The position numbers and the translations under genes were made by a program. From Dehalococcoidia bacterium (GTDB lineage: Bacteria > Chloroflexota > Dehalococcoidia > DSTF01 > RBG-16-68-14), in contig JBBEBM010000042.1 of the NCBI GenBank assembly GCA_040882355.1, positions 17,309 to 81,308 of the forward strand: DNA of 64,000 nt. The letters are read 5' to 3'. Shown in pieces: positions 12,763 to 34,330 of this stretch; position 1 is the first letter of the stretch, and the number at the start of each line of letters is the position of its first letter. The notes below the pieces were generated by a model, which ran no database searches, was not told where the DNA came from, and was given only the letters and a program-made list of their open reading frames with translations.

Positions 12763-12774
12763 GCGCGGAGGGCG

Positions 12775-13365: not shown

Positions 13366-13511
13366 GGGAAGCCATCTGACATCATGGGCCCAGTATAGTG
13401 GGTGCGCCGCCCGGCCTCAGCGGCCATATGGTTGCCGCGTGCTGCCCGGCAAGAGTATGATCCCGGGCAGTAGCACCGGACCCGCCTGGAGCAGAGAAGC
13501 GTGGTGAAGGC

Positions 13512-14666: not shown

Positions 14667-14710
14667 CTACCGCCACCCCCAGGCCGTTCGCTACGCTGGA
14701 GGCGCGCCCC

Positions 14711-16936
14711 ATGACCGTCGACCAGCGCACGCTCGACCAGATCGCCCTCTCCCGGGACGAGTATCGCCTCGCCTGCGAGCGGCTCGACCGCGAGCCGAAC
14801 GAGGTCGAGCTGGGCATGCTGGGCGCCCTCTGGAGCGAGCACTGCGGCTACAAGAACAGCCGGCCCCTCCTCCGCCTCTTCCCCACCACCGGCCCTCGCG
14901 TCCTCACCAAGGCGGGGGAGGAGAATGCGGGCGTCGTCGACATCGGCGACGGGCTCTGCGTGGCGCTGAAGATCGAGTCCCACAACCACCCTTCGGCGAT
15001 CGAGCCGTACCAGGGCGCGGCGACAGGCGTCGGCGGCATCGTGCGCGACATCTTCGCGATGGGGGCGCGGCCCATCGCCATCTTCGATTCGCTCCGGTTC
15101 GGGCCGCTCTCCGACGCGCGCAACCGCTATCTGATCGGCGGCGTCGTTGGCGGCATCGGCGGCTATGGCAACTGCCTCGGCGTACCCACCGTGGGCGGCG
15201 AGATCGCCTTCGAAGGCTCCTACTCCGGCAACCCGCTCGTCAACGCGATGTGCGTCGGCATCGCCCGCGTCGACAAGCTGCAGCGGGCGCGCGCCGAGGG
15301 GCCGGGCAACATCCTCATGCTCGTCGGCGCCGACACCGGCCGCGACGGCATTCACGGCGCCACCTTCGCCAGCGTCGAGCTGGACGAGCGCTCCGAAGAG
15401 CGCCGGCCGGCTGTGCAGGTGGGTAACCCGTTCCTCGAGAAGCTCCTCATGGAAGCCTGCCTGGAGCTCGCCGAGCAGCACGCGGACTGGATCGTCGGGC
15501 TGCAGGACCTGGGCGCCGCCGGCCTCACCAGCTCCAGCGTCGAGTGCGCGGCCAAGGCAGGCACCGGCCTCGACATCGACGTCTCGCTTGCGCCCAGGCG
15601 CGAGCGCGGCATGACCGCCTACGACCTCATGCTCTCCGAATCGCAGGAGCGCATGCTCGTCATCGCGAAACGCGAGTTCGAGGACGACGTGCGCCGCCTC
15701 TTCGAGCGCTGGGAGCTCCACTGCGCAACGATCGGCGTCGTCACGGACGACGGCATGACCACGGTGCGCGATGGGAGCGAAGTCGTGGCGCGGATACCGG
15801 TCTCGCTGCTCACCGACCCGCCAACGTACTTGCGCGACGGCGTCAAGCCTCGCTGGCTCGACGAGCTGCAGTCGTACGACCTCGCCGCCCTGCCTGACGT
15901 GACCGACGCGAACGATGCCCTGCTGCGCGTGCTCGCTTCGCCCGAGGTGGCCTCGAAGCGCTGGGTCTGGCGTCAGTACGACCACCAGGTGCTCACCAAC
16001 ACCGTCGCCGGGCCGGGCAGCGACGCAGCCGTCATCCGCGTCAAGGGCACGTCCAAAGCGATCGCCCTCAGCACCGATGGCGATGGGCGCATGTGCTTCC
16101 TCGATCCGTACGCCGGCGGCGCGCTTGCGGTCGCTGAGGCGGCGCGCAACGTCGTCTGCGCGGGAGCGGAGCCGCTCGCCCTCACCGACTGCCTCAACTT
16201 CGGCAACCCTGAGAAGCTGGAGGTCTACTACCAGCTCGAGCAGTGCATCCGCGGCATGAGCGACGCCTGCCTGGCGCTCGGCGTCCCCGTCGTCTCCGGC
16301 AACGTCTCGCTTTACAACGAAACGAACGGCGAGGCGATCTACCCCACGCCCGTCGTCGGCATGCTCGGGCTAATCGAAGACGTCGAGCGCGTCGTGCCGA
16401 TGGCGTTCCAGCGCAACGGCGACGAGGTCTTCCTGATCGGCGCGATGCTCACCGGCGACGCCACCAGCCTCGCCGGCAGCGAGTACGCGAAGGTGACGCA
16501 CGACGGCCTTGTCGCTGGCCGGCCGCGCATCGACCTCGATCTCGAAGTGCGCGTCCAGCGCCTGTGCCTGGAGGCGGCCCACCGCGGCCTGCTCGCCTCC
16601 GCCCACGACTGCTCGCGCGGCGGTCTCGCCGTCGCGCTGGCCGAGTGCTGCACGGAAGGCAGCCACGGCATCGACGCGTCCGGCGCAGCCATCGATGGCC
16701 GCATGGACGCCGCCCTGTTCGGCGAGGGGCCATCGCGCATCGTCGTCTCGACCCCGCAGTCCGCGGCCCTCCAAGCGCTCGCCCGGGAGCGCGACGTGCC
16801 CTGCGTCCGGCTGGGGGTCGTGGGCGGCGAGCGCCTCACCCTCGGTCCGTATCTGGACCTCGCCGTCGAGGACCTTCGCGCGGCGTACGAAGGCGGTCTG
16901 CCTGCGGCCCTCGACGCCCAAGAGGCGGCCCGTTAG
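14711..16936 (+). CDS. purL: phosphoribosylformylglycinamidine synthase subunit PurL
   Basis: The 741-aa product has the PurL FGAM synthase II architecture along its full length. Confidence 0.92.
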
Positions 16937-16971
16937 CCGGTCGCCCCGGGCTCAACCCGAAGTTGAGTTTC

Positions 16972-17000
16972 GGTTGACAGGCTGGCATAGAGGTGCTATG
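16972..17000 (+). promoter_or_regulatory. sigma70-like promoter TTGACA-17-TATGCT followed by a ~330-nt untranslated leader
   Basis: Seen: TTGACAggctggcatagaggtgcTATGCT. The next start codon is at 17334. Confidence 0.35.
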
Positions 17001-17333
17001 CTGATAAGGACAATCGAATACCCCGCCTGCCGAATCCCTAAGTGGAACGGGGGACCCACCGAGAACCGGGGTGAATTTCTCCTGACGATCAGGGGAAATG
17101 GCCAGTCCCTTCAGGCCAAACCCGTCAGCTAACCTCGTAGGCATCTGAGGGAAGGCGTCAGCCAGCGTAAACGCGGGACGAGGGCGGCGCTCTCATATTG
17201 CGCTCCTACGTATCCAGCGCGGTTCTGACGCAAGGCCTTCACCTCTCGGTCGTGTCCCCATTCGGTTAAGCCGCAGCAGATATGTGCGGCGCTTCTGGAT
17301 GCCAGGCGGAAGCACAGAGGAGGTGCGCCCCAC

Positions 17334-17810
17334 ATGTCACGCGAAATCGCGAGTCCCGTAGCCCTTGCCAATCGTCCACCCGCTGCAACTGCAGCCTGCC
17401 CTCAGGAAGGCCTGCTTATCACCGCCGACGGCGCCCTCGCTCGCGCCTTCCTCAGCGGGCTAGGGAGCGGCGCCGAACGCACCATCGCCTTCGATGTGCG
17501 GTCGAGTCTTGCCGACGCGAAGGAGCTGGCTGGCGATAGGCGTCGCTGGGTGGCCATCGACCTGAGCGGCGCCGTGCCGCCGGTCGAGGCTGTTGGCATC
17601 GCGCGCCTGCTCTGGCCACAAGCGCGCATCGCCGTACTCAGCTCGTGGTGGAGCGACCAGGACGCCGCCGCCCGCGAGCTGGCGGACACGGTGATCCACA
17701 AGCCGTTGCGCTCGCATGAGATACTCGCATTCTTGAGCGACAGGCCGGTCGCCGTGCCCAATGCAGCGCCGCCAGCGGCTGCGACGCCGCCGCTTCGCAA
17801 CGCAAGCTAG
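17334..17810 (+). CDS. CheY-like receiver-domain protein (stand-alone)
   Basis: REC-like landmarks are present: LLITAD, VAIDLSG, VLSS, HKPL. Confidence 0.45.
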   Translation: MSREIASPVALANRPPAATAACPQEGLLITADGALARAFLSGLGSGAERTIAFDVRSSLADAKELAGDRRRWVAIDLSGAVPPVEAVGIARLLWPQARIAVLSSWWSDQDAAARELADTVIHKPLRSHEILAFLSDRPVAVPNAAPPAAATPPLRNAS

Positions 17811-18487
17811 ACGGCCGGTCGCGCCCCGTTCTCGCGCAGCTCCCACTCCGGCCAGCCCTCCTGCCCGCCGATGAGCGGCACGAAGCGGCACTCGCCCAGG
17901 CGCTCCAACGTCACGCCTCTATCGGAGTTCGTCACCCGCACCAACTGCTGGGCCTTCCGGCTACCCACCGGGATCACCATCCGCCCGCCCATCGCGAGCT
18001 GGTCGACGAGGGAGCGAGGCACCTCGGGCGCGCCGGCGGTGACGATGATCGCGTCGTACGGCGCCTCGTCCGGCCAGCCGAGCGTCTCTTTCGCCGGGTA
18101 CACCCTCACGTTGTTGTAGCCCAGCGCCTTCAGCCGGCTCGCCGCAGACTGAGCCAGCTCCGGAATGCGCTCCACGCTGATCACTTCGCGCGCCAGCAGC
18201 GAGAGCACAGCAGCCTGGTAGCCCGAGCCCGTCCCCACTTCCAGCACCTTCCCGTCGCCTCGAAGCTGCAGCGCCTCCGTCATGATCGCCACCATCAGCG
18301 GCTGCGAGATCGTCTGCCCCTCGCCGATCGGGAGCGGCCGGTCTTCGTACGCGTAGCGGTGCAGGTCAGGGATCACGAAGCGCTCGCGCGGCACGCGCCC
18401 GAACGCCTCCAGCACGCGTTCGTCGCGGATCTCCTTGCGCAGAGCGCGAACCATGTCGGTTCGCGCAGCCTCGAAGTCGATGGGCAC
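17807..18487 (-). CDS. pcm: protein-L-isoaspartate O-methyltransferase
   Basis: It has the SAM-binding motif VLEVGTGSGYQAAVL and the ISQP motif, as in the PCMT family. Confidence 0.88.
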   Translation of the reverse strand: MPIDFEAARTDMVRALRKEIRDERVLEAFGRVPRERFVIPDLHRYAYEDRPLPIGEGQTISQPLMVAIMTEALQLRGDGKVLEVGTGSGYQAAVLSLLAREVISVERIPELAQSAASRLKALGYNNVRVYPAKETLGWPDEAPYDAIIVTAGAPEVPRSLVDQLAMGGRMVIPVGSRKAQQLVRVTNSDRGVTLERLGECRFVPLIGGQEGWPEWELRENGARPAV

Positions 18488-18552
18488 GGCTCCCTCCTCC
18501 CAAGTATCGCGAGCAGGTTAGCACACCGCGCCCGGACCGCCGTCGCGCGCTG

Positions 18553-19704
18553 TCAGGCTCTCGCTCGCTGCCAGAAGTGGCGTTGGATGCGCTCCAGATG
18601 TCCCTCAGGGAGGCGCTGCGCGGTGCCCTCTCTCAGTCCCGTCACGTCCGAGTCGAACGACTGGATCGCGGCGACACGCAGCCACCACTCGAACGTCTGC
18701 AGCACCTCCCAGTAGCGCAGCCGATCCTTATCGATGGGCAGGTGCTTCCGGTAGCCGCGCAGATAGCGCCGCACCAGCATGTACCGGCCGAAGCGGTCGA
18801 GCAGCATGCCGATCACACCGCTCAGCTCGCCGGGCGCCGTGCGCATCAGGACGAGCGTGCTCGCGATGTCGCAGTGCCGGTCGCCCAACGCCGCGCCCGA
18901 CCAGTCGATCACGCTGAGGCGCTGCTCGTCGTCCACAACGATGTTCTGCGGATGGAAGTCGTTGTGGCAGAGCGAAGCCTCCTCCGGCATCACCATCCCC
19001 TTGTGCGCTTCGAGCCAGGCGAGCGCGTCGTCTGTGCCGGTCACACCCATCGCGGCGATGCGACGGCGGAAGTCAACGAGCTGGCGCTCCACGAGCGTGC
19101 CGTCCGCGGGCAACGGACACGCCTCGACAGGAAGCCGGTGCAGATCGGCGTGCGCCTTCGCCATCAGCGGCGTCAGGCCGCGCGCAGAGATGGGGTTCGC
19201 CTGGAGGCGGTCGAGCATCGTCCGGCCGGGCGCGCGCTCCATGATCAGGAACGGCCGCCCGAGCGCACCTGCGCTCGTCTCAATGGCGAGGACCGCGGGT
19301 GCTGGATACCCACGTTCGACCACGAAGCGCTGAACCGCGCCGTCGAACTCGGCTCGCTCGCCCTGTTCGGCGTTGGGGTAGACGCGCAGGATGAGCGGGC
19401 GCGCCCACGCGGGGTCGACGCCGTCGCTCTCCAGGCGGAAGGTGTAGATGTGCGTCTCCCAGCCCGTCTCGATCGCCGCGGGCGCCTCGGCGAAGCGCAG
19501 GTCATCGACGCTGAGCCGCGCCGTCAGGTACGCGAGTAGCGCCGGCGCGACCTGATCGGCCCGGGACGGGTCGCTGGGCACGAGCCACCTCCGGCGCCCA
19601 GTGTAGGCGAGCGCCTCGGGAGGAGCCAACATTGAACCGATGCGGGACCTTAGAGCGGCTTCCAATCCTGACGAAAGGTCGGATGCGTAGGCAATTGACT
19701 CCAT
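18553..19704 (-). CDS. aminoglycoside phosphotransferase (APH)/kinase-like protein
   Basis: The catalytic loop LCHNDFHPQNIVV and the DWSGAALGDRHCDIA motif are present. Confidence 0.75.
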   Translation of the reverse strand: MESIAYASDLSSGLEAALRSRIGSMLAPPEALAYTGRRRWLVPSDPSRADQVAPALLAYLTARLSVDDLRFAEAPAAIETGWETHIYTFRLESDGVDPAWARPLILRVYPNAEQGERAEFDGAVQRFVVERGYPAPAVLAIETSAGALGRPFLIMERAPGRTMLDRLQANPISARGLTPLMAKAHADLHRLPVEACPLPADGTLVERQLVDFRRRIAAMGVTGTDDALAWLEAHKGMVMPEEASLCHNDFHPQNIVVDDEQRLSVIDWSGAALGDRHCDIASTLVLMRTAPGELSGVIGMLLDRFGRYMLVRRYLRGYRKHLPIDKDRLRYWEVLQTFEWWLRVAAIQSFDSDVTGLREGTAQRLPEGHLERIQRHFWQRARA

Positions 19705-20245
19705 GTGCCTGGATGCAAGATGGCCTCCACAATCAGCCCATCGAGTTCTGCTCTGTTCTCAATTGTCGGCTGCGGGTAAGTCCTCTCGTCCAAGTACTCT
19801 GCACGCGGTGCCCTCAATCTATCGTGTACCGACAGGAAGCCCTTGCCAACTGTCATTTCGACACCCGTGAACCGCTTCGCCAAAGTAAAGCCGACTCTGG
19901 CGACAGCCCGGTCGCTCTCAAGCCGCACACGGTAGGCAACGCAGAATCTCTTATGAAGCCATGTCTTCCGTGGGTTGAGATCGAAATACTGGTCGAAGGG
20001 GTCTCATCTACGTGCATTTGGGCGTTCCAGTTGCGATAGCTCGGAAGTAATCTAAGAGCTTCCTCTATCGATCCCTGGATCCCCGCTGCGTAGCTGAACT
20101 CGTTTACCTCAGTCCGGGCGGCTGTATACTCCCGAAGTCGGTGCTCATCTCTTTCTCGGTGACGCCGCTCCTCGCCCGATTGCTTAAGTTCGTCCTCAGC
20201 AAGGGCTCGGCGGAACCGTCCGTCCAAACTCATCATGTCCTCCAC
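19650..20245 (-). pseudogene. low-GC region with two overlapping minus-strand ORFs in different frames (probable frameshifted or degraded gene)
   Basis: ORFs 19853..20245 and 19650..19928 overlap out of frame. GC is visibly lower than in flanking DNA. Confidence 0.25.
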
Positions 20246-20308
20246 AACCTTTTCGCATCCCTCACACCAGCTCCTTCACCTTCTCCGCCGGCGACCGCGT
20301 GACGCGGC

Positions 20309-20672
20309 TTACTTCTCTTGTTCCAGGCGCTCCAGCAGCCACATGCGCGCGAGGGTAGACGCGCCCATCCCCTTCTTGCGTCCCGCCTTCGGGAGTAGAT
20401 CGATTCGTCTTCGCATCGAGGCGCACTCCCGGGATGTGCCCGAGCGGCCGCGTCACCGTCAACCGCTTCAATTCCTTCCACTCGCCGTAGTCCAGCGGGC
20501 TGTGCGTGTCCCGGAACTCCGCCTCTTCTTCGCGCGACGTGAACTCAAGGACTTCGCCGCTCACTTTGGGATGTGTCCGATGCCAATTCCGAGCTTCTTC
20601 TTCGCCTGCCCGATCTTCGTGGTGACGTTGTCCTGGTGCGGACCGAAGCGTGCGAGCTGCTTCTTCAGCCAC
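20309..20672 (-). pseudogene. BrnA-like (RHH/CopG-type) antitoxin gene, copy 1, disrupted by a 1-nt indel
   Basis: It has the N-terminal SREEEAEFRDTHSPLDYGEWKE motif. Shifting frame by one restores a C-terminal RHH, ...KKGMGASTLARMWLLERLEQEK*, ending at TAA 20309-20311. Confidence 0.5.
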
Positions 20673-20967
20673 CTGCCGCTGTAGGCAAGCTCATAGAGCG
20701 TCCAGATAGCATCTTCGGTTCGGCCAAGGGACTGCGCCAGGTTCGCTACATTCGCTCTCGTAGGTACAAGCGACAAGACCAGTTCGATCTCCCCTCGCGT
20801 GTAAGGATCAAAGGCCTTTGGCACTCCTTCTCGTTTGGTTTTCATGGAACTGTCACCTCCTCCAAGGTCGACATCTGCAATCTGGGCAGGATTGTACCAG
20901 ACCAGTGGTCACCCTCACACCGTCTCCTTCACCTTCCCCGCCAGCGACCGCGTGAGCGAGCGCGGCC

Positions 20968-21252
20968 TACTTCTCGTCTTCCAGGCGCTCGAGGAGCCGC
21001 ATACGCGCGAGGGTCGACGCGCCCATCCCGCTTTTTGCGTCCCGCCTTCGAGAGTAGATCGATCGTCTTCGCGTCGAGGCGCACGCCCAGGATGTACCCG
21101 AGCGGCCGCGTCACCGTCAACCGTTTCACTTCCTTCCACTCGCCGTGGTCCAGCGGACTGTGCGTGTCCCAGAACTCCGCCTCTTCTTCACGGGACTTGA
21201 AGCGCGGGATCTTCTTCGGCTTAGGCCCCGGTTTCACGCGTGGTGCAGCCAT
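20968..21252 (-). pseudogene. BrnA-like antitoxin gene, copy 2, frameshift at an A5 run
   Basis: MAAPRVKPGPKPKKIPRFKSREEEAEFWDTHSPLDHGEWKEVKRLTVTRPLGYILGVRLDAKTIDLLSKAGRKK is followed, after a +1 shift at CGCAAAAAG, by GMGASTLARMRLLERLEDEK* (stop 20968-20970). Confidence 0.5.
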
Positions 21253-21261
21253 CCTCAGCGC

Positions 21262-21657
21262 TTAGACACCCTCGCTCGGTTCGCAGACGCGGACGGTTCC
21301 ATCTGGTTCGACGAAGAGCCAGTAGAGCGGCAGGGCCTGCCGCACCCTCGGGCTCACCTTCCTACACTGATGGAGGAATTGCGGGATAGCTGGGACCGCA
21401 AGAGCATACCGACTCGTTTCATCCCTCATTTGCTGCAGGATTTGTCCCAGCCCAGTGCGAAAGTCGAGTCCGATGTCAGCGGTCTGCCCTTTGGCCTCTA
21501 CTACCCATCGCTCTCCTGTTGTAGGGTGGACGCTCGTAAGATCCGCTGTTCCTTCTGAGGTGGGACGAAAGCCGGCCTTGAGGAAATGCGCTTCGATCGA
21601 TTGTTGAACGAATCCCTCATTCGGGTACTCGGTGCCACGACGATAGGTCCGGCCCAT
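21262..21657 (-). CDS. hypothetical protein with a PD-(D/E)xK nuclease-like motif
   Basis: The product contains ...GTADLTSVHPTTGERWVVEAKGQ... (D...EAK). It sits directly upstream of BrnA-like copy 2 and is co-oriented with it. Confidence 0.35.
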   Translation of the reverse strand: MGRTYRRGTEYPNEGFVQQSIEAHFLKAGFRPTSEGTADLTSVHPTTGERWVVEAKGQTADIGLDFRTGLGQILQQMRDETSRYALAVPAIPQFLHQCRKVSPRVRQALPLYWLFVEPDGTVRVCEPSEGV

Positions 21658-21661
21658 CAGT

Positions 21662-23542
21662 CTACACCAGCTCCTTCACCTTCTCCGCCAGCGAGCGCGT
21701 GAAGCCGACGGTCGACGCGATCTCATCGATGGGGGCGTCGCGGATGCCCTTCACCGAGCCGAACTTGCGCAGCAGCGCCCGCTTCCGCTTCGGCCCGACG
21801 CCCGGCACGGCGTCGAGCGCCGACTGCACGGCCGCCTTCTTGCGCAGGCCGCGGTGGTAGGTGATCGCGAAGCGATGCGCCTCGTCGCGGACGCGCTGCA
21901 CCAGGTAGAGCGCCTGCGACGTCCGCGAGAGCACGATCGGCTCCGTCATGTCCTTGACGAACAGCTCCTCGTTGCGCTTCGCCAGGCCCGCCGCCGGGAT
22001 CTGCTCGACGCCCAGGTCGCGCATCGCGTCGAGCGCGGCGTGGAGCTGCCCCTTCCCACCATCGACGATCAGCAGGTCGGGCAGCGTCTGGAACGACGCG
22101 TCCTCGCGCCGGGCCGCGCGGCCCCCCGCCCGTGCGCCGTCATCCTCGCTCGAGCCGTCGCGCTCAGGCGGGGCGGTCGCGCGGCGGAAGCGGCGCTTGA
22201 GCACTTCCGCCATCATGGCGAAGTCGTTCGAGCCTTCGACCGTGCGTATCTTGAAGCGACGGTACTCCTGCGGGCGCGGCTGGCCGTCGGTGAAGACGAC
22301 CATGCTACCGACGGCGTTCGTGCCCTGGATGTTCGAGATGTCGTAGCACTCGATGCGGCGCGGCGAGTCCGGGAGGTTCAGCTCCTCCTCCAGCTCGTCG
22401 AGCGCGGCCTGCGTCTTCGACGTGTCGGCGAGCCAGCGCGCTTTCGCCTGTTCGAGCGCCTCGCGGGCGTTCGCCTCGGCCATCTGAACGAGTTTGCGCT
22501 TCTCGCCGCGCTCGGGCACCAGCAGCCGGACGACGCCACCGCGACGCTCCGTGAGCCACGACGCGAGCAGCTCTGACTCGGGGACGGCGACCGGCAGCAG
22601 GATGCGCTTCGGGATGTAGGTGGCCGAGCCGTAGAACTGCTTGAGGAAGCTGGCGAGCACCTCCGCGTCGGGCTCGTCCTTCGCGCCGTCGAGCGTGAAG
22701 TGGTCGGTGGCGACGAGCTTCCGGCCGCGCACGAAGAGCGCCTGCACCATCGCCTCGGTGTCCGTGCGGGCGAGGCCGAAGACGTCTTCGTCCGCCGGCT
22801 TCGTCGACGCGACGGTCTGCGTCTCGGTGACGCGTTCTATCGCGCGGAGCTGGTCGCGCAGGCTGGCGGCGCGTTCGAACTCCAGCGCTTCGGACGAGGC
22901 GTCCATCTGCGTTCGCAGCGCGCGCACGACTTCGTCGGTGCGGCCTTCGAGGAACATGATCGTCTGGCGGATCACCTCGGCGTACTCCTCCTGCGTGGCG
23001 AACGACGAGCACGGAGCGATGCAGCGGTGGATGTAGTACTCCAGGCACGGCCGAGGGTCGTCGCCGGTGATCACCTTCGTGCACGTTCGCCAGGGGAAGA
23101 GCTTCTTGGTGATGTCCAGCGTCTTGCGCACCGAGCCGGCGCTGGCGTACGGCCCGAAGTAGCGCGCGCCGTCCTTCTCCACGCGACGCGTGATGTAGAC
23201 GCGAGGGAACGGGTCCGTGAGGTCGACCTTCAAGTAGGGGTAGTGCTTGTCGTCCTTGAGGCGCACGTTGTAGAAGGGCTGATGGCGCTTGACGAGCGTC
23301 GCCTCCAGGAAGAGCGCCTCCTGCGCCGTGTGGGTGACGATGTACTCGAAGTCGGCGATGGCGGCGCGCAGGCTGGCGAGCTTCGCCTCCATGCTGTGGG
23401 CGGCGCCGAAGTACGAGCGCATCCGGCTGCGCAGGTTCTGCGCCTTGCCGACGTAGACGACCTGGCCGCGGTCGTTGCGGAAGACGTAGACGCCGGGGCG
23501 CTGCGGCACCGACTTGAGCCGTTCGACCAGCGGTTCGGGCAT
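21662..23542 (-). CDS. uvrC: excinuclease ABC subunit C
   Basis: It has an N-terminal GIY-YIG domain (GVYVFRNDRGQVVYVGKAQNLRSRMRSYF), the UvrC centre and a C-terminal HhH. The product ends ...SLAEKVKELV. Confidence 0.92.
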   Translation of the reverse strand: MPEPLVERLKSVPQRPGVYVFRNDRGQVVYVGKAQNLRSRMRSYFGAAHSMEAKLASLRAAIADFEYIVTHTAQEALFLEATLVKRHQPFYNVRLKDDKHYPYLKVDLTDPFPRVYITRRVEKDGARYFGPYASAGSVRKTLDITKKLFPWRTCTKVITGDDPRPCLEYYIHRCIAPCSSFATQEEYAEVIRQTIMFLEGRTDEVVRALRTQMDASSEALEFERAASLRDQLRAIERVTETQTVASTKPADEDVFGLARTDTEAMVQALFVRGRKLVATDHFTLDGAKDEPDAEVLASFLKQFYGSATYIPKRILLPVAVPESELLASWLTERRGGVVRLLVPERGEKRKLVQMAEANAREALEQAKARWLADTSKTQAALDELEEELNLPDSPRRIECYDISNIQGTNAVGSMVVFTDGQPRPQEYRRFKIRTVEGSNDFAMMAEVLKRRFRRATAPPERDGSSEDDGARAGGRAARREDASFQTLPDLLIVDGGKGQLHAALDAMRDLGVEQIPAAGLAKRNEELFVKDMTEPIVLSRTSQALYLVQRVRDEAHRFAITYHRGLRKKAAVQSALDAVPGVGPKRKRALLRKFGSVKGIRDAPIDEIASTVGFTRSLAEKVKELV

Positions 23543-23689
23543 GGCGATTCCATGGTAGCGAATCGGCCCTCACCCCCAACCCCTCTCCCGCCTTGCGGGC
23601 GAGGGGAGCGGGCCGCGGCCAGAGGGCGCTGCTGATTCTCATCCTGAGCTTGTCGAAGGGTGCCCTCCCTCGGCCCCAGTCCCGCGCGT

Positions 23690-24075
23690 TTTGTGGCAGT
23701 ACGTTTTGCAAAATCGCCTTTTCTGGCGAAGCACCTCGAATCACCTCCTGCGCGGGAGTCTGGCGGGCGGGCGCTGAGCGAAGCACGCCCTCGCCGGCTT
23801 GTCGAGTATGAGGATACGGGCGCGGCGGGAGATCTCGAAGGGGGCGGCGGCAGCGGCAATGCCCGATGCCTTAACCGCGCGTCTTGTGTCATTACGTTTT
23901 GCAAAAGCGCCTTTTTCGAGCGGATCGCCTCGAATCACCCCGCGCGCCGAATCCAGCGCACCGGCGCCGAGCGCTGTACGCCCTCGCCGGGTTGTCGAGT
24001 GTGAGGATACGGGCACCGCGGGAGAGCGCGAAGGGGGTGGTGGCGCGGTGCTTGACATCCGCCGGCGCGGTGGTA
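23690..24075 (+). repeat. two tandem copies (~193 bp each) of the dispersed repeat family (cores ACGTTTTGCAAAATCGCC / ACGTTTTGCAAAAGCGCC)
   Basis: Copy 1 (~23690-23882) and copy 2 (~23883-24075) align with each other and, in reverse complement, with 8040-8205 and 34130-34330. Confidence 0.7.
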
Positions 24076-24122: not shown

Positions 24123-27100
24123 GTGCGACTCTTGCATATCGTAGCGGCCGTAGCTGGTGCGGTTCTGATCGTAGCCGTTATCCTAAGTGCTTCGTCACGC
24201 CCGGATGCCATTCTGGCCTCTGGCGCAACTGAGATCTCCGCCGGTGGAAGTCACACCTGTGCACGGACAGCGCTTGGAGACGTGAGGTGCTGGGGCCAGA
24301 ACCTGGTAGGACAACTAGGGAACGGTTCGTTCTCGGGGCCAACAGACGCGAATCCAATTCCGGTGGAGGTGTTGGGGCTGGAAGGCAGCGCAGTGATGGT
24401 GTCCGCCGGCGGACTCCACACGTGCGCTGTCACGGTGATCGGCGGCGTGAAGTGCTGGGGCGACAACTTTAGCGGGCAGTTAGGCGATGGCACAACACTG
24501 GAGCAACAGCCCCCTGGCCGGGCGATTCCCGTGGACGTGGTGGGCCTCGGCAGCGGCGTTGAGACTGTCAGCGCCGGCGGCTCGCACACGTGCGCTCTAA
24601 CCGCGGAGGGAGGAGTGAAGTGCTGGGGTGGAAACGAATTTGGACAACTAGGTGATGGAACGACCACTAATCGAGCCTTACCGGTAGATGTGGAAGGGCT
24701 CAGCGAAGGCGCAACGGCAGTGGCGGCGAGTGGTTTCCACAGCTGTGCCCTCATCGCGTCGGGAGGCGTCAAGTGCTGGGGCAATAACCAGGATGGGCAA
24801 CTGGGGAACGGAATGTTTGCTAACAGTGCGATCCCCGTTGACGTGGCCGGGTTAGATGATCCAGTGGTCAAACTAACAGCCGGGTTGGGCTATGATGGCC
24901 ACACCTGCGTCTTAACCGCAAAGGGAGGTGTGCGGTGCTGGGGTGGGAACGAGAATGGACAATTGGGTGATGGAACGACGATTGACAGAAGTACACCAGT
25001 TGGCGCGGCGGGACTTGCAAGCAGCGTGACCGGCGTGTCCGCGGGCGGCGGGGGATCCATCGCGCCGTTTGCAGGACACACGTGTGCGATCACCGAGTCG
25101 GGTGGGCTGAAGTGCTGGGGTGGGAACAACTCTGGCCAGCTGGGCGACGGAACGACTACGCAGCGCCTGGTTCCAGTCGATGTGACAGGATTGAGCGCAG
25201 ACGTGTCTCGCATATCGGCTGGAGGCGGCGGCGGATGGTCGCCGTACAGCGGCCACACATGCGCGGTAGCGACTGACGGCCGCGTGAAGTGCTGGGGCGG
25301 GAATCAGTATGGACAGTTGGGTGATGGTACGGATACCGCTTCCACCTCGCCGGTGGAGGTGGTTGGATTCAGTGTGAAGCCGACGGCTACGCCGACCGGA
25401 ACGTCTACACCGTGCGGGCCAGAAGGATGTCCTACACCGACGACGACCTCGACGCCTACAGCTACGAGAACGCGGACGCCTACGTCCACGCCGACCAATT
25501 CAGCCACTCCTACCATGACGGCCAGTCCCACAGGCTCAGCGACCAGCACTGCGACGAGGACGAACACGAGGACCGCTACGTCTACTCCATCACCGACCGG
25601 AACCCGAACACCCACGCCAACACGGACACCATCCGCCACGCCGACGGCAACCCCTGTGAAGGAGGGCTTGAAGGTGAAGGTGCTGGCACCGAATTTCGTG
25701 AGCCCGGGCCAGACCTTCAATTACGTGGTCACGTATACCAATGGTGCAACTTCTCCTATAGCCGATGCGAAGCTGATCAGCCGGCTTCCATCTACGGCCA
25801 CGTTCAATTGGTCGTGGCCGCCGGGAACCTACGATGCAGAATCGCGTACCGTCTCTTGGGACCTTGGAGCAATCAGCCAGGAGAGCAGCGGATCGTTTTC
25901 GGTTAGTGTCGTGACAAATTGGGGCCTGTCGGTGGGCACAGTCCTGGAGAACCTGGCTAGCGTGGAGCAACAGGGAGCTCCTGCGGAAGCGAGCTCTGCG
26001 CACCAGTCGACAGAAGTCGCTAGCGCTGGTGCGTTTCGGCTGCCGTTTGTTGGCCGCACGAGAGCGTCGACCTACGCTGGTCATGGCGAAGCTCTGGACT
26101 TCTGGATGCACCGCCCATCTGTGGACAACTCATGGAACGGCGAAGTCAGGGCAGCGCAGCGCGGTGTGGTCGTGTACGCGCAGATGAATGTCGCAGGTGG
26201 TTCGAGCTCCGCCTGCCCAGGTAGACCCGTTGGTTACGGCAATCTCGTGGTCCTGGAGCACCACATCAAGGGCGTTCGGTACACCACCCGATATGCGCAC
26301 CTCAGCACCTTCAACGTTAGAGTGGGGGAACAGGTACCGCAAGGGTACCTAGTAGGCACCTACGGCGATACTGGCTGTACTTTTTCGGCGACAGGTGACG
26401 CGAGACACCTTCACTTCGAGCTTCGGAAGGGCGGTGCATTCTGTCCACCACATCCCACGGCCTGCCCGTCAGTCTTCAGTGGCTCTGAGCTGGATATTAC
26501 CGGACTAAGCGGGATAACGAGCGTCGGCAGCCCAAGCGGGGGCGGAGATGCAACGGGGGCTCCGCTTGCTGCTTCGGGCCAGCTCAATCAGACACGGATA
26601 GTGGTGGCCAGCGATCCTAATGCGAAGCATGCCGACCGTGAGTTCGCTGAGCATGGTGACACGGTAAACTTCACTATCGAATTCGAGAACGAGGGTGAGG
26701 GCATCGCTTTCGGTGTCAATGTTGTGGACACGCTGGACCAGGACCTCGATGTTTCTACTCTACTGCTCCCGGAGGGAGAAGGCGGAATCTACGACGCTGC
26801 CACGAGGACAATCGCGTGGGACTTAGGTGAGGTGGGGCCAGGCGAAGGCGGGGAGTTGCACTTCATCGCCAACGTGCACGGCGATGCAGAATGTGGCGAC
26901 GAGGTGATGAACTCGGCGACCGTGAACTTCCCGAGCGTACCGGAAGTGACGACTACGAATGGCGTTTCCGTGGTGGTCATCGGTTCCGGGTGCGACCTCG
27001 ATTCCGACACCTTGCCTGATCTGATAGACAACTGCTCGATAATGTCGAATGGTCCTGCTCAAGCCGCCATTCCTGGCGTAGGGAACCAGACCGACAGTGA

Positions 27101-27707
27101 CAGTGACGGGGATGGAGACGCCTGCGACAATGACGACGACAACGACGGCATGCTGGATGCTTCCGAAGTCTTCTACAGCTGCATGGACCGCGTTGTGGCC
27201 GACGCTTCACTTGACTACGATGGCGATGACCTCGCCAACGCAGCCGAAATGAGCTTGTGGAAGACCTTTGGACTGAGCACGGATCCTTGCGACGCGGACA
27301 CGGACAGCGATGGATGCCTCGACGGGCGAGAGGTACTCACTCAGGCTGGCACGCAGGTGTCCGGCGGCCGCCGGGATCCCCTGTACTTCTGGGACTACTT
27401 CGACGTGCCGACAGGCTTGCCGCCGACGCGCGACGGTGCCGTGAGTGCGGGAGATGTTGCTGGGGTGGTGGCCCGGTTCGGCTCAAACGACGATGCGCCC
27501 GGCACTTTCGATCGCGGGAGCGATCCCCTGTCCGCTCCGCAGGCGCCAGTGCAGCCCTCGGGCGCCCGGGCCAACTACCACCCCGTGTACGACAGAACCG
27601 GCGTGACGCCAGGCGGCGAGACTTGGGATCTCCTGCCGCCGAACGGTTCTATAACGTCGGGAGACCTTGCGGCGGTTGTGGCACAGTTCGGCCACAGTTG
27701 CATCTAG
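24123..27707 (+). CDS. secreted multidomain protein: signal/TM, 7x RCC1 repeats, T/P linker, DUF11-like, M23 peptidase, DUF11-like, TSP3-like Ca-binding repeats, dockerin-like C-terminus
   Basis: RCC1 repeats follow CWGxNxxGQLG(D/N)G. The T/P linker is at nt ~25390-25650. The M23 domain has HLHFEL (nt ~26090-26450). Asp-rich DxDxDGxxD repeats precede the C-terminal ...WDYFDVPTG...AGDVAGVVARFG...SGDLAAVVAQFGHSCI. Confidence 0.7.
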   Translation: MRLLHIVAAVAGAVLIVAVILSASSRPDAILASGATEISAGGSHTCARTALGDVRCWGQNLVGQLGNGSFSGPTDANPIPVEVLGLEGSAVMVSAGGLHTCAVTVIGGVKCWGDNFSGQLGDGTTLEQQPPGRAIPVDVVGLGSGVETVSAGGSHTCALTAEGGVKCWGGNEFGQLGDGTTTNRALPVDVEGLSEGATAVAASGFHSCALIASGGVKCWGNNQDGQLGNGMFANSAIPVDVAGLDDPVVKLTAGLGYDGHTCVLTAKGGVRCWGGNENGQLGDGTTIDRSTPVGAAGLASSVTGVSAGGGGSIAPFAGHTCAITESGGLKCWGGNNSGQLGDGTTTQRLVPVDVTGLSADVSRISAGGGGGWSPYSGHTCAVATDGRVKCWGGNQYGQLGDGTDTASTSPVEVVGFSVKPTATPTGTSTPCGPEGCPTPTTTSTPTATRTRTPTSTPTNSATPTMTASPTGSATSTATRTNTRTATSTPSPTGTRTPTPTRTPSATPTATPVKEGLKVKVLAPNFVSPGQTFNYVVTYTNGATSPIADAKLISRLPSTATFNWSWPPGTYDAESRTVSWDLGAISQESSGSFSVSVVTNWGLSVGTVLENLASVEQQGAPAEASSAHQSTEVASAGAFRLPFVGRTRASTYAGHGEALDFWMHRPSVDNSWNGEVRAAQRGVVVYAQMNVAGGSSSACPGRPVGYGNLVVLEHHIKGVRYTTRYAHLSTFNVRVGEQVPQGYLVGTYGDTGCTFSATGDARHLHFELRKGGAFCPPHPTACPSVFSGSELDITGLSGITSVGSPSGGGDATGAPLAASGQLNQTRIVVASDPNAKHADREFAEHGDTVNFTIEFENEGEGIAFGVNVVDTLDQDLDVSTLLLPEGEGGIYDAATRTIAWDLGEVGPGEGGELHFIANVHGDAECGDEVMNSATVNFPSVPEVTTTNGVSVVVIGSGCDLDSDTLPDLIDNCSIMSNGPAQAAIPGVGNQTDSDSDGDGDACDNDDDNDGMLDASEVFYSCMDRVVADASLDYDGDDLANAAEMSLWKTFGLSTDPCDADTDSDGCLDGREVLTQAGTQVSGGRRDPLYFWDYFDVPTGLPPTRDGAVSAGDVAGVVARFGSNDDAPGTFDRGSDPLSAPQAPVQPSGARANYHPVYDRTGVTPGGETWDLLPPNGSITSGDLAAVVAQFGHSCI

Positions 27708-27939
27708 GGGGCCACGCCCCACACCCGGCGCGAGGCGCCGCCACCGCCCCCTTCGCGCTCTCTCGGCCCGGCCCTACCCTAGACCTCGATAACTAGTCGT
27801 GGGCATGCGCCCGATTCGGGCGCCTCTCAGGTTCGCTCGCGGAGGCCGACTTACGTCATGACCAGCAAAGAGGCGCTCCTGCAAAGATCAATCAAACGCC
27901 CGCCCAGATTCACCACCGGCGCCACGCGGGCCCGGCCAG

Positions 27940-28000
27940 CTTCGGAGGTCGTCCCGTCAGAAAGGCGCTTTTGCCAAACGGCCTGGTCAAACAGAGAGCC
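27940..28000 (-). repeat. partial copy C of the dispersed repeat (GGCGCTTTTGCCAAACGG core)
   Basis: It aligns with the core of the other copies. Confidence 0.45.
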
Positions 28001-28137
28001 TGCCCGCCGCAGGAGGGCTTGCAGGGCAGGGTGGTGGGCGCGACCCGCGACCCGCGAGCCGCGACCCGGGGGCGCTGGTGGTCGCTCGGCGCGCTGTGCG
28101 CTAGACTGACGGCAACCTGGCGCCAAGGGAGGTTCGT

Positions 28138-28746
28138 GTGATGGGATTCCTGAGCTTCTTCGTCGCATCGTGGATCGGGCGGATCATCGGGCTGCTGCTG
28201 TCGCTGGTGATCCTGGCGGTCGCCTTCTTCGGGATCATCGGCGTCCTCGCCGCGACCGGCGGGCCCGGCGCCTGCACGCCCGGAGGCGGCCCAATCACCG
28301 TGAGCGACGCCAACGCCGCCGCGTTCCAGACCAAGTGGGACGCCTTCGCCGGCACGCTGAACAACGGCCAGCCGGCGACCGTCACCTTCAACGAGAGCGA
28401 GGTCTCGTCTCGCGCGAACCAGTGGGCGCGCGACGAGTCGATCGACTTCGACGCCGACATTCTCGTCTGCATCCACGACGGCTCCGGCGAGGCGACGGCT
28501 ACCTTCGGAGGCGGTTGGGTGGACTCAGAGGTGTCGGTCACCGGCACCGTGACCATCGAAGGCACGCACCCGCAGGCCCACGTCGACGACATCGAGCTCG
28601 GCAACGTGCCCGGCTTCATGATCGGGCCGTTCGAGGGTCGGATCGAAGACGCGATCCAGGAGGCGCTCGACATGATCGACCTCGACGAGCACACCTACAC
28701 CGTCACGCTCACCGAAGGCTCCGCGCAGATCGACGGCACGCCGTAG
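28138..28746 (+). CDS. hypothetical N-terminally membrane-anchored protein with a ~170-aa extracytoplasmic domain
   Basis: An N-terminal TM helix (FFVASWIGRIIGLLLSLVILAVAFFGIIGVLAA) is followed by a beta-rich soluble domain. Confidence 0.5.
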   Translation: MMGFLSFFVASWIGRIIGLLLSLVILAVAFFGIIGVLAATGGPGACTPGGGPITVSDANAAAFQTKWDAFAGTLNNGQPATVTFNESEVSSRANQWARDESIDFDADILVCIHDGSGEATATFGGGWVDSEVSVTGTVTIEGTHPQAHVDDIELGNVPGFMIGPFEGRIEDAIQEALDMIDLDEHTYTVTLTEGSAQIDGTP

Positions 28747-28747: not shown

Positions 28748-28870
28748 GGAGCCGCCGCCAGAGCCCCACCCTGGGTCAAGGGTTCAGGGTCAAGGTTCAA
28801 GCCCGACCCGCAAGAGAGGGGTGGGCTGGCCTCGACCCCCGACCCCCGACCCCTGACCCCTGACCCCTGA
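28748..28870. terminator. imperfect long inverted repeat built from GGGTCAAGG / GACCCCT heptamer repeats between convergent genes; candidate bidirectional terminator
   Basis: gggtcaagggttcagggtcaagg ... cgacccccgacccccgacccctgacccctgacccctgaccctg. Confidence 0.35.
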
Positions 28871-28887
28871 CCCCTGACCCTGCGCCG

Positions 28888-30585
28888 TCAGGCGCAACTG
28901 TGGCCGAACTGCGCGACGGAGGCGGCGATGTCGCCGGCGGTGATCGAACCGTCGGCGGGCTGGAGGTCCCACGGCTCGCCACCCGGCAGGATGCCGCCGC
29001 GCTCGTACGCGCTGTGGTAGGCGGGCGCGGGCGGCGGCGGCGAAAGCGGGTCGCCCGGCTTGCCCGTCGCGCCGAAGCGCGCGACGACGCCCGCGATGTC
29101 GCCGGCGGTGACGGCGCGGTCGCGTGCGGGCGGCGGAGCGCCCGTTGGCACGTCGAAGAAGTCCCAGAGGTTGTTGGGGTCGCGTCGCCCGCCCTCCGTG
29201 GCATCGAGGCCCAGCTCCTGCGCGTCGCTGCAGCCGTCGCCGTCGCTGTCTTTGAGCAGGACAGGCGCCGGCAGCGGGCTGTCGGTCGTCGAGCCGTCGC
29301 CGAGCTGGCCGAAGGCGTTATCGCCCCAGCAGAGGACCGCGCCCGACGCAATCGCGCAGGTGTGCAGCGTACCGGCCGCAACAGCTTCGACGCCGCTGAG
29401 CGCAACGCAGGGCAGGTCGGCGCAGACGGCCACGGGGTTGTGCCAGTCGGTCGTGGTGCCGTCGCCGAGCTGGTTGCTGGCGTTGCGGCCCCAGCAGCGC
29501 GCGCCGCCGTTCGAGAGCGCCGCGCACGAGTGCTCGTCGCCCAAGCTGAGGCCGTCGATGCCCGTCAGCGCGACCCCGCCCGCGCAGTTCGTGCCCACGC
29601 CCGTCGCGCAGACGTCGAAGGGGTTCGCCCGCTGGAACGCCGTGCCTTCGCCGAGCTGGCCGCGGAAGTTCAGGCCCCAGCACTTCGCGCCGCCGTTCGA
29701 CATCAGCGCGCAGCTATGCCTGCCGCCCGCGTCGATGTCGCTCACGCCGGAGAGCAGAGCGCAGCCTGCGCCGGAGCCGAACTGACAGACGTCCGTGGGA
29801 CTGGGGCGCGGGTGAACGGCGGTGCCGTCGCCGACCTGGTTCTCGGAGTTCTGTCCCCAGCACTTCACGCCGCCGTTCGACATCAGCGCGCACGTGTGGT
29901 CGATGCCCGCGGCGATATCGACCACGTCCCCGAGGGCGGCGCAGGTAGCGGCGCTTCCCGTGGCGCAGACCGTCGCCGGCAGCGCGACGTCGAAGGCAAG
30001 GCCGTCGCCCAGCGCGCCCGCGGTGTTATCGCCCCAGCAGCGCGCTTCGCCGCTCGAGAGCGCCGCGCACGAGTGGTCCTTGCCCGCTGCGATCGCCGCG
30101 CTGCTGACACCATCCATGCCGGACACGTGGATCGGCAGCGGGTGCGCGTTCGTGTCCTGCGTGCCGATGCCGAGCTGCCCCTGGTTGTTCGCGCCCCAGC
30201 ACATCACGCCGTTGTCCGTGTTGAGGGCGCACGTGTGGAAGCCGCTCTCGCCGCCCGCCGCGATGGCGATGATGCCGGTGAGCGACCCACCGCCGGCGCA
30301 GCCCGCCCCCGAGCCGCTGGCGCAGACCTCCACGGGCGACGTGCGCATCGCGGCCGAGGTGCCGTCGCCGAGCTGGCCCCAGGTGTTGTCGCCCCAGCAC
30401 TTGACGGTGGTGTTGTCGAAGAGGGCGCAGGTATGGGCGCCGCCCGCCACGATCTCGATGACCTGGGCGCCTGTCGCAGCGGCTTCCGGCGGGCCGCCGG
30501 GCCGTCCGAGCGCGAGGCCCGCCGCCAGCGCCGCTATCGCGACGCCGAACGCCACCCCCACCAGCACCCATCGATTCACAAGCAT
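28888..30585 (-). CDS. secreted RCC1-repeat protein (7 repeats) with a TSP3-like repeat and the same dockerin-like C-terminal module
   Basis: It has an N-terminal signal/TM, CWGDNTxGQLGDG repeats, and the C-terminus DSDGDGCSD...LWDFFDVPTG...AGDIAGVVARFG...AGDIAASVAQFGHSCA, which is homologous to the C-terminus of 24123..27707. Confidence 0.7.
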   Translation of the reverse strand: MLVNRWVLVGVAFGVAIAALAAGLALGRPGGPPEAAATGAQVIEIVAGGAHTCALFDNTTVKCWGDNTWGQLGDGTSAAMRTSPVEVCASGSGAGCAGGGSLTGIIAIAAGGESGFHTCALNTDNGVMCWGANNQGQLGIGTQDTNAHPLPIHVSGMDGVSSAAIAAGKDHSCAALSSGEARCWGDNTAGALGDGLAFDVALPATVCATGSAATCAALGDVVDIAAGIDHTCALMSNGGVKCWGQNSENQVGDGTAVHPRPSPTDVCQFGSGAGCALLSGVSDIDAGGRHSCALMSNGGAKCWGLNFRGQLGEGTAFQRANPFDVCATGVGTNCAGGVALTGIDGLSLGDEHSCAALSNGGARCWGRNASNQLGDGTTTDWHNPVAVCADLPCVALSGVEAVAAGTLHTCAIASGAVLCWGDNAFGQLGDGSTTDSPLPAPVLLKDSDGDGCSDAQELGLDATEGGRRDPNNLWDFFDVPTGAPPPARDRAVTAGDIAGVVARFGATGKPGDPLSPPPPAPAYHSAYERGGILPGGEPWDLQPADGSITAGDIAASVAQFGHSCA

Positions 30586-33073: not shown

Positions 33074-33464
33074 CTGCCCGGCTTCCCTTCCGTATCAGAC
33101 GGCTTCCAGATTCAGTTTAGTCCCTTCGGTCAGGTCCTGCCAACAACGGGCTACCGGGTGCGACGGACGGGGCCCATAGGCGCCGCCGGCAGCTATGACA
33201 AGGTGCTCATTCTCTCGAGACACTCATCGGCACCAACCCTCGATCCGCGCCTGCCCTCGAGGCCTTGCTGCGACCCTCGACCCGGGGGAGGAGGGGCAGT
33301 GGGGGGCCTAGTCCGCCTCGCGGCCCCTGCCATCAAGAACTGCAATCACGACGCCGACCATGAATACGAGGGAGATTCGCGTCAGGAGAGAGATGCGCCG
33401 GTCCATGCAGAGTCGCCTTCCTGCTGTGCGCCACCTGTGGCGCCACCGCCCGAGCAGCGCAATC

Positions 33465-34100: not shown

Positions 34101-34129
34101 CGCTCTCCGCGGCCGTGCCATCCGACCGT

Positions 34130-34330
34130 TCGCGCTCTCCCCCCGCGCGCGTATCCTCACACTCGACAACACCGCGAGGGTACGCAGCGCTCAGCGCACG
34201 GGTGCCAGACTCGCGTGAGAGAGGAGATCCGGAGTGTTTCGCCCGAGAAAGGCGATTTTGCCAAACGTACTGACAGGTTTCGCGCGGCTGCACAGCGGCC
34301 ACGCCGGACAATCGGGCATGGGGGCGGGCC
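34130..34330 (-). repeat. copy D of the dispersed ~190-bp repeat family
   Basis: It is the reverse complement of the 23883-24075 copy and is in the same orientation as 8040-8205. Confidence 0.6.

Follow-up and report, generated by a model that had tools for sequence, protein, structure and literature searches.

A dispersed, non-coding ~175-bp repeat in a Dehalococcoidia bacterium may represent a family of small transcription units with a promoter-like module of its own

A 64,000-nucleotide stretch of contig JBBEBM010000042.1 (positions 17,309 to 81,308 of the forward strand) from the Dehalococcoidia bacterium assembly GCA_040882355.1, hereafter the window, contains a dispersed, non-coding repeat of about 175 bp that occurs far above chance expectation. 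We tentatively read this repeat as a family of small transcription units, that is, sibling small RNA (sRNA) or leader cassettes that carry their own conserved, non-canonical promoter, and on the sequence evidence we give this reading a probability of about 40%. An original prediction, made from the letters of the window, had offered three identities for the repeat: a mobile repeat resembling a miniature inverted-repeat transposable element (MITE) or a repetitive extragenic palindrome (REP), a family of small RNA or regulatory sites, and a shared operator-like palindrome. The second of these fits best, although on the opposite strand to the one proposed, because of a promoter-like module that had gone unrecognised.

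Five copies of the repeat (A to E) are present in the window, all of them intergenic as had been claimed, and A and B stand in tandem with a period of 193. Tandem Repeats Finder (TRF) placed this pair at 23682-24048 (1.9 copies, 81% matches), and a repeat finder linked it, in inverted orientation, to 8124-8196, 27736-27808 and 34113-34287. The CGTTTKGCAAAAKCGCC core was found as an exact match at 8172-8188(-), 23702-23718(+), 23895-23911(+), 27964-27980(-) and 34251-34267(-), and shuffled sequence yielded 0.4 matches even at up to 3 mismatches. A pattern for the second (3') block, which was derived from these same copies, matched 5/5 of them against 0.00 expected. Moreover, when the 64 kb were searched with nhmmer and a profile hidden Markov model built from the short-class copies, the five were the only matches, with E-values between 1e-17 and 1e-49. 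TRF, the patterns and nhmmer thus confirm the predicted five-copy repeat and its tandem pair, with boundaries corrected to a unit of ~175 bp; the GC content of the window, stated as 68%, measures 67.1%.

Coordinates and strands of the copies are given from here on for the promoter strand, which is the opposite of the strand used in the original prediction. The short class is represented by copy A (23682-23855, minus strand; the uvrC-proximal member of the tandem, detected by TRF and by nhmmer at E=7e-49), copy B (23874-24048, minus strand; the distal member, TRF and nhmmer E=3e-47), copy C (8035-8208, plus strand; nhmmer E=4e-43 and pattern matches) and copy E (34113-34288, plus strand; nhmmer E=9e-48). 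Copy D (27737-27995, plus strand), delimited by alignment and by nhmmer in two segments, belongs to a long class; the stretch 27940-28000, earlier taken for a partial copy, forms the distal part of this full-length variant. The core-proximal third of D is duplicated internally, an architecture shared by a copy from another assembly (L014); a degenerate first core-like segment at ~27860-27895 precedes the true core at 27964-27980.

Eight further copies (L013 to L020) were found on metagenome contigs of related, uncultured Chloroflexota; the related Logan contigs derive from SRR27977658. L013 and L014 lie on contigs that encode paralogues of a neighbouring lipoprotein, and L015 to L020 came from a metagenome scan with the second-block pattern. 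The resulting set of 13 comprises 11 full or variant copies and two with the second block alone; D, L014 and the more divergent L016 make up the long class, in which the distal part is repeated. Pairwise identity ranges from 56 to 80%, the best pair being the tandem A/B at 80%, and the identity among window copies (63-80%) is about the same as that across metagenomes: L020 is 76% identical to A, whereas C is only 66% identical to it. No near-identical copies were seen among the window and metagenome loci compared. As judged from the alignment, the blocks described below have stayed the same across a distance that would have erased them from neutral sequence, and this combination of divergence with conserved blocks among free sequence has the pattern of long-separated paralogues kept by purifying selection and not that of a recent burst. 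A search with the 20-mer core of a species-representative genome collection that does not include the source genome gave 12 single matches in unrelated taxa; around the one inspected (L004) the sequence is low in GC and contains none of the other blocks of the element.

The promoter-like module spans ~55 bp and has the order GCCACC-N3-CCCCTTCGCGCTCTC-N12/13-TAYCCT-N3/4-CTCGAYAACCC. Its right half had been seen before from the other side, as the TTGTCGAG..GAGGATACGGGC block of the original prediction is the reverse complement of TAYCCT-N-CTCGAYAA. The -35-like TTCGCG, contained in CCCCTTCGCGCTCTC, is separated by 17-18 nt from the -10-like TAYCCT, and CTCGA is located at the position expected for a start site. 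In the minus-strand copies these boxes are found at 23839-23834 (TTCGAG), 23816-23811 (TATCCT) and 23806-23802 (CTCGA) for A, with the core at 23718-23702, and at 24032-24027 (TTCGCG), 24009-24004 (TATCCT) and 23999-23995 (CTCGA) for B, with the core at 23911-23895. On the plus strand, C has TTCGCG at 8051-8056, an 18-nt spacer, TACCAT at 8075-8080, CTCGA at 8084-8088 and the AT-rich core at 8172-8188; D has TTCGCG at 27752-27757, TACCCT at 27775-27780 and CTCGA at 27785-27789; and E has TTCGCG at 34129-34134, TATCCT at 34152-34157, CTCGA at 34162-34166 and the core at 34251-34267.

Over the 13 aligned copies, information content is high at GCCACC, CCCCTTCGCGCTCTC, TAYCCT and CTCGAYAACCC, with A2 and T6 of TAYCCT invariant, and low in the 12-13-nt interval between the boxes, the length of which is nevertheless fixed. 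Pairing of this interval with the segment after CTCGAYAA was no better within a copy than between copies (-12.75 vs -12.91 kcal/mol), and 11534 of 20000 permutations did as well (p ~0.58; 6220/20000 and p ~0.31 on the opposite strand), so the interval is simply free of constraint, which is what a promoter spacer would show. In two loci, L015 and L018, the module stands alone, immediately before open reading frames (ORFs) and in the correct orientation. In L015 the ATG lies 8 nt after TACCCT, a leaderless geometry, and in L018 a GAGGTG Shine-Dalgarno sequence is followed by an ATG 38 nt after CTCGA.

Several other assignments of these blocks were tried and discarded. A sigma-54 reading of TGGCAGTACGTTTTGCA has a GG-to-GC spacing of 11 nt instead of 10, and its GG varies between copies. 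If the AT-rich core held a promoter on the forward strand, its -10 box would have to be TACGTT or CAAAAT, and neither is conserved across copies. Motifs of RecA-NDp, sigma-28, sigmaB-type, CtsR, DnaA-box and IHF sites, compared by eye, did not fit.

After the module, short-class copies continue with ~120 nt of block-conserved sequence that ends in GGCGNTTTTGCMAAAC. The conserved blocks of this segment are GGGCATGC, GCGCCAGAYTCGCG, a GGAGG-like run and TTCGCC-N-GAAAAAGGCGNTTTTGCMAAACNNACTGCCAC, the last of which includes the core on which the original prediction had centred. That core was rightly placed in every copy, CGTTTKGCAAAAKCGCC being exact in 5/5, but in D it begins with CCG instead of ACG, and the 10-bp palindrome TTTTGCAAAA is restricted within the window to A and B, with the non-palindromic TTTGGCAAAA in C, D and E. 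Since the T/G polymorphism breaks the palindrome in 4/11 cores (C, D, E and L014), the proposed operator-like character is not supported. The centre of the core TTTKGCAAAA is GC, and its palindromy varies between copies, while boxes of the PurR/LacI type have a CG centre; an identity as such a box or as a FadR box was rejected by comparison with the consensus boxes, with no database search.

At the end of this segment, a hairpin before a U-tract is paired in 85% of alignment cells, and two of its pairs have changed on both sides; the stem is of 5 bp and is followed by UUUU. Two small helices include 6 pairs with changes on both sides, and 0/500 shuffles reached the observed score. An apparent preference for the promoter strand in the numbers of G-U pairs (31 vs 2 cells) was dismissed as an artefact of predicting the structure on that strand. 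With Rfam release 15 the element regions gave only noise (at most 14 bits) and no family match even at E up to 10. The sole match in the window at gathering score was a cyclic di-AMP (c-di-AMP) riboswitch at 17018-17158.

Inspection of ORFs and alignments revealed no conserved reading frame on either strand, with frameshifting indels between copies. Small ORFs were considered, as the GGAGG run is followed by GTG or ATG in 5/8 copies, but they are frameshifted and have no common stop, and the variation between copies falls at codon positions 1 and 2. On the forward strand, long ORFs cross every copy.

The next gene is co-oriented with the promoter strand in 8/9 assessable loci, these being A (upstream of uvrC), C (7TM-HD protein gene), D (membrane-protein gene), L014, L016, L017, L019 and L020. 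The original description of copies adjoining gene 3' ends was true but misleading in this respect, as the promoter strand points towards a gene start in these 8 loci. Copy A precedes the uvrC start at 23542, 140 nt past the end of the element; C is located between yqeY (7309-7758) and the 7TM-HD gene (8347-10551), co-oriented with both; and D follows the stop codon of an RCC1/M23 gene (27707) and points to a membrane-protein gene at 28138-28746. Copy E starts 13 nt after the stop of a lipoprotein gene (33360-34100), and the gene ahead of it, which encodes a methyltransferase (34380-35153), is convergent and turns its 3' end towards the copy; E is the sole locus without a co-oriented downstream gene, and copy B has copy A next to it and no gene directly downstream. 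Both E and B retain every block without a gene to serve, which argues that the unit matters in itself and not only as the promoter of a neighbour. The downstream genes are functionally unrelated, and the spacers that separate them from the element are variable and non-homologous. Moreover, anything from ~70 to ~216 nt separates the core from the start codon, which is not the placement of a fixed operator for the promoters of those genes.

Part of the family is associated with a group of lipoproteins, here called the P family, which have a lipobox, no Pfam match and a strongly conserved C-terminus (..LIDKDLLIQVVAENLQPIPE), the last 30 residues being by far the most conserved part. At least three paralogues are encoded in the Dehalococcoidia metagenome-assembled genome (MAG; locus tags WEE64_), one hypothetical protein of which is 99% identical to a protein encoded next to copy E; YqeY is 100% identical to a protein under this MAG label. 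An AlphaFold model of the member at 33360-34100 (plus strand) is confident at residues ~75-246 and weakly resembles PsbP/Mog1/MTC28-like folds (TM ~0.3), none of which connects it with mobility. Of the 13 copies, five border on a P-family gene or its remnant: E, C and L019 directly after the stop codon, and L013 and L014 upstream in divergent orientation. The other eight are not close to any P gene. In the case of C the contact is with a remnant at 7958-8018 (plus strand), which consists of the last 20 codons (LIDKDLLIQVVADNLRPYPQ*), or 60 nt, and is joined to the left edge of the copy; it was recognised by translation, by alignment with the copy E region and by the P-family alignment, and has no intact ORF upstream. 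The left edges of C and E thus continue into 60 nt of homologous gene 3' end, and because copy C carries this remnant, its left edge is not a clean transposition boundary. As far as this sequence homology indicates, the unit that moved or decayed had imprecise ends at least once.

Turnover of the copy C locus was visible in relatives. In L021, whose YqeY is 89% identical, the region downstream of yqeY shares the proximal hairpins and then diverges completely; over the 252 nt compared it has neither remnant nor element, the whole spacer being replaced with no sign of a clean insertion. In two relatives at 81% YqeY identity, the yqeY spacer is of 192 nt, compared with 588 nt here. These differences indicate that copies are gained or lost between close relatives. 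The hairpins themselves include a perfect palindromic one, GTAGGGGCGTTCAATTGAACGCCCCTAC, at 7816-7843, shortly after the yqeY stop and without a U-tract, and a second occurrence of GAACGCCCCTACC at 7891, followed by a multi-hairpin segment GGGTCAGGCTT..CCCGCCGCAAGCGGG..AAGCCT (7891-7957). Both features are conserved in L021 (1365-1460) and may constitute a terminator or processing structure.

If the copies are small transcription units, the module GCCACC + CCCCTTCGCGCTCTC + TAYCCT + CTCGAYAACCC would act as the promoter, with transcription starting at the G or A of CTCGA; the predicted starts are 8087/8088(+) in C, 27788/27789(+) in D, 34165/34166(+) in E, 23803/23802(-) in A and 23996/23995(-) in B, and 3' ends near the U-tract would fall at about 8180(+), 27972(+), 34259(+), 23710(-) and 23903(-), respectively. 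The product would be a non-coding RNA of ~100-125 nt (~215 nt in the long class), made up largely of unstructured conserved blocks, and its 3' end would be provided by the short hairpin and U-tract in the AT-rich core, UCGCC-N6/7-GGCGA-UUUUGC. Where a gene follows, the copies could instead be alternative long leaders. The blocks kept by E and B without a gene favour an RNA product or another intrinsic function over a mere promoter for the neighbour. New copies would arise by tandem (A/B), internal (long class) or segmental (C) duplication, and not by cut-and-paste transposition.

A number of observations weigh against this reading. The boxes match the sigma-70 consensus poorly (3/6 + 4/6, or 7/12 positions) and are not called by a promoter scanner, whose two best promoters in the scanned regions are canonical TTGACA-16/17-TGnTATGCT sequences, one just upstream of the c-di-AMP riboswitch and the other before an RCC1-repeat gene. 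The latter is the TTGACA-16-TATGCT promoter at 24052 of the original prediction, which the scanner confirms; it belongs to the RCC1-repeat gene and is located immediately beyond copy B. If the element's boxes are a promoter, it would probably be read by an alternative sigma factor or with an activator, and not by the housekeeping sigma alone; the region upstream of an extracytoplasmic function (ECF) sigma gene in the window (35212-35823) does not contain the module. At the other end of the proposed transcript, a terminator scan found nothing on the promoter strand, the hairpin has only 5 bp and four U and is missing in L017, and the conserved AAACGNACTGCCAC extends beyond the U-tract; terminator-like sites are altogether scarcer in positions 1-20000 than in shuffles (4 observed vs 7.7). 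In 8 copies, the folding energies of either strand do not depart from those of dinucleotide shuffles (z-scores between -1.4 and +1.4), and the consensus fold is weak (-9.9 kcal/mol). As RIBOSUM alifold values, compared symmetrically, are similar for both strands, the RNA-level evidence does not pick one. Finally, the orientation statistic is small, since the informative loci, those between genes of the same direction (C, D and L019), number three and agree in 3/3 (p = 0.125), and several downstream genes seem to carry their own -10 box nearer the start codon, so that the element is not needed as their promoter.

Other explanations account for part of these data. The element could be a selfish, non-autonomous repeat, REPIN-like in its logic and not in its sequence, in which the blocks are recognised by a recombinase or transposase that acts in trans and is encoded elsewhere in the genome; it would spread into intergenic DNA and persist there, and promoter activity, if any, would be a by-product. 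In favour of this, the element is multi-copy and always intergenic, occurs in both chromosomal orientations and in tandem and internally duplicated forms, lies next to genes of unrelated function, and is gained or lost between close relatives as at the yqeY locus (L021; 192 vs 588-nt spacer); long-lived repeat populations of this sort are moreover known, as for REPINs (PMC8049555). We nevertheless hold this explanation to be rather unlikely. A search of each copy with its flanks for terminal inverted repeats returned only idiosyncratic GC-rich pairs, none of them terminal or shared, and none at all in C, and no flanking direct repeats that could be target-site duplications were visible in the aligned flanks. 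These features, together with the imprecise left edge, at which C drags along 60 nt of a neighbouring gene, and the 63-80% identity within the genome, speak equally against the MITE of the original prediction, as the lack of a hairpin signal (z from -1.4 to +1.4) does against a REP-like element. Identity over the whole family is 56-80% with no near-identical pair. A Pfam scan of 18 window proteins showed neither a transposase nor a RAYT-like protein, and nothing relevant was matched in collections of viral contigs, plasmids and phages. Related proposals were also set aside: as a template or variable repeat of a diversity-generating retroelement, the copies would differ specifically at adenines, which they do not, and a composite transposon with inverted elements around a P gene is seen partly in L014 but neither in the window nor in L013.

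It is distinctly unlikely, in our estimation, that the element acts at the DNA level, as a reused cluster of binding sites with the core as operator or activator site and the box pair as additional sites or a promoter. Copied upstream of several genes, it would place them under one regulator and would thus be a putative mobile promoter. Homologous upstream DNA before non-homologous genes is the operational definition of such promoters (PMC3488235), the downstream gene is co-oriented in 8/9 loci, conservation takes the form of primary-sequence blocks without RNA structure, and the AT-rich core is near-palindromic in 5/11 copies. The core, however, lies ~70-216 nt from the start codon and at no fixed distance from the gene-proximal -10 boxes, its palindrome is broken in C, D, E and L014, and E and B have no downstream gene; the identity is mostly below the 80% criterion, and an operator cluster would not usually need as much as ~120 nt of conserved sequence. 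Even less probable are functionless leftovers of segmental duplication, carried along with P-family genes and having blocks that are alike only by relatedness. The 5/13 copies that touch a P-family gene or remnant, and the clear movement or decay of C with a P-gene 3' end, are what such leftovers would produce, but neutral decay to 56-80% identity would not leave sharply bounded blocks (A2/T6 of TAYCCT, CTCGA, TTCGCG and TTTTGC) in every copy across several organisms, nor would it explain the 8 copies without a P gene nearby and the stand-alone modules of L015 and L018. In practice, the selfish-repeat, DNA-level and duplication-debris explanations overlap. As for a structured cis-regulatory RNA, such as a riboswitch or leader for the downstream genes, the upstream position and the 6 pairs changed on both sides in two small helices (0/500 shuffles) are the points in its favour; with z-scores around 0, a consensus of -9.9 kcal/mol, no Rfam match at E up to 10, unrelated downstream genes and non-homologous 70-216-nt spacers with apparent gene-proximal promoters, we consider it very improbable.

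Read as small transcription units, the family is new, but of a kind already known. Families of sibling sRNAs that share one conserved promoter include Qrr1-5 in Vibrio, the CiaR-dependent csRNAs in Streptococcus and the tandem PrrF1/PrrF2 in Pseudomonas. The element resembles them in its dispersed and tandem paralogous copies, which are not identical and lie in unrelated intergenic contexts, in having promoter-like boxes of its own and in a ~100-150-nt non-coding segment with conserved single-stranded blocks. It differs from those families in that its putative promoter is not known to match any described sigma or regulator motif and in that it has no convincing intrinsic terminator or predicted stable fold. 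The BOX modules of Streptococcus pneumoniae and the bacterial interspersed mosaic elements (BIMEs) of E. coli form stable stem-loops, and REPs are short palindromes. The element shares with BOX and BIME a modular construction, with a repeatable middle or distal module (here the long class) and tandem arrays, but its folding energy is that of shuffled sequence.

The definition of putative mobile promoters asks for 50 nt or more at 80% identity or more, no farther than ~150 nt from the start codon of non-homologous coding sequences whose neighbours are likewise non-homologous (Matus-Garcia, Nijveen and van Passel 2012, PMC3488235); recombination that duplicates them is among the ways in which they are proposed to spread, and many of their families have no known function (PMC3488235). 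The element also places homologous sequence before non-homologous genes, but only A/B reach 80%, it lies ~70-300 nt upstream, with most copies beyond 150 nt, apparent gene-proximal promoters stand in between, and two copies have no downstream gene. Correia (CREE/NEMIS) repeats of Neisseria and ERIC repeats of enterobacteria are promoter-bearing intergenic repeats that are co-transcribed with their neighbours (cited in PMC3488235). They have in common with the element an intergenic position and a length of 100-200 bp; they differ in having terminal inverted repeats and, for Correia, a TA target duplication, neither of which is present in the element.

The surroundings of the copies contain further sequence features. 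A TACCAT at 23552-23557 (minus strand), 9 nt upstream of the uvrC ATG (23542) and with no Shine-Dalgarno sequence, suggests that the uvrC mRNA is leaderless; -10-like TATCAT, TAGACT and TACAAT sequences occur before other genes downstream of elements. Copy A is separated from the start of uvrC by a strong GC-rich hairpin at 23570-23600, CCCCTCTCCCGCC-TTGC-GGGCGAGGGGAG, which, read on the uvrC strand, could stop transcripts from the tandem elements. The 15-mer CTGAGCTTGTCGAAG at 23646-23660 (plus strand) adjoins copy A and recurs beside the L014 copy (~780-795), inverted relative to the element; its other strand translates as FDKLR(M/S), and it may be a separate small repeat. TRF also detected heptamer tandem repeats near elements (CGCGACC x4.3 and GACCCCT x6.7, at 28039-28068 and 28834-28880, respectively); CTCCAGC/CTGGAGG-type heptads flank the copies in L014, L016 and L020, and degenerate heptads flank C and E (8265-8300 and 34340-34365).

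Elsewhere in the window, the c-di-AMP riboswitch (RF00379, 17018-17158, plus strand, 87.8 bits) has a TTGACA-17-TGcTATGCT promoter just upstream (16974-17002) and is followed by a 158-aa ORF (17334-17810) with no Pfam match. The 7TM-HD protein encoded downstream of copy C belongs to the domain family of the PgpH c-di-AMP phosphodiesterases. Some 900 nt separate copy E from the ECF sigma factor gene, and a direct repeat of 181 nt and 73% identity (35275-35455 / 36094-36274) suggests a second, paralogous ECF gene at ~36010-36636, and a 482-aa ORF at 36411-37859 has no Pfam match. Just downstream of uvrC, the repeats D7, D10 and D13 (20259-21702; 2-3 direct copies at 653-747-nt spacing, 84-91% identical) overlap minus-strand ORFs of ~107-136 aa (20262-20672, 20929-21252 and 21262-21657) and may represent paralogues arranged in tandem. 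A pair of large, secreted proteins with RCC1 repeats, one of them with M23 peptidase and DUF11 domains as well, are encoded convergently at 24123-27707 (plus strand) and 28888-30585 (minus strand) and share a paralogous C-terminus of ~40 aa (..GDIAA.VAQFGHSC*). The protein of 24123-27707 has Thr/Pro-rich linker repeats, and similar ACC/CCG-rich DNA repeats occur at 61493-61877. A 68-nt direct repeat with 96% identity and a spacing of 179 nt was found at 54064-54131 / 54243-54310, its first copy at the 3' end of the ORF 52636-54141.

To our knowledge, almost no sRNAs have been characterised in the Chloroflexota, a phylum known largely from MAGs and in which intergenic repeats and sRNAs are almost unstudied. 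A bolder version of our reading, which we consider speculative and unlikely, is that an alternative sigma factor or activator of this uncultured, high-GC Chloroflexota lineage controls a regulon of its own through the 55-bp module, and that the element is a self-duplicating sRNA gene that takes this promoter along, spreads and diversifies like a repeat, is partly tied to PsbP-like secreted lipoproteins and would be among the first sRNA families in the phylum. Should the copies not be expressed, they would amount to one more lineage-specific repeat, still useful as a marker, and the spurious long ORFs through every copy are in any case a warning for gene callers. The family constitutes a concrete candidate, a conserved, putative non-canonical promoter motif with a predicted transcript of ~120 nt and starts predicted at single-base resolution. 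If the reading is true, the lineage would have a promoter class and a family of sibling sRNAs that spread by duplication instead of transposition.

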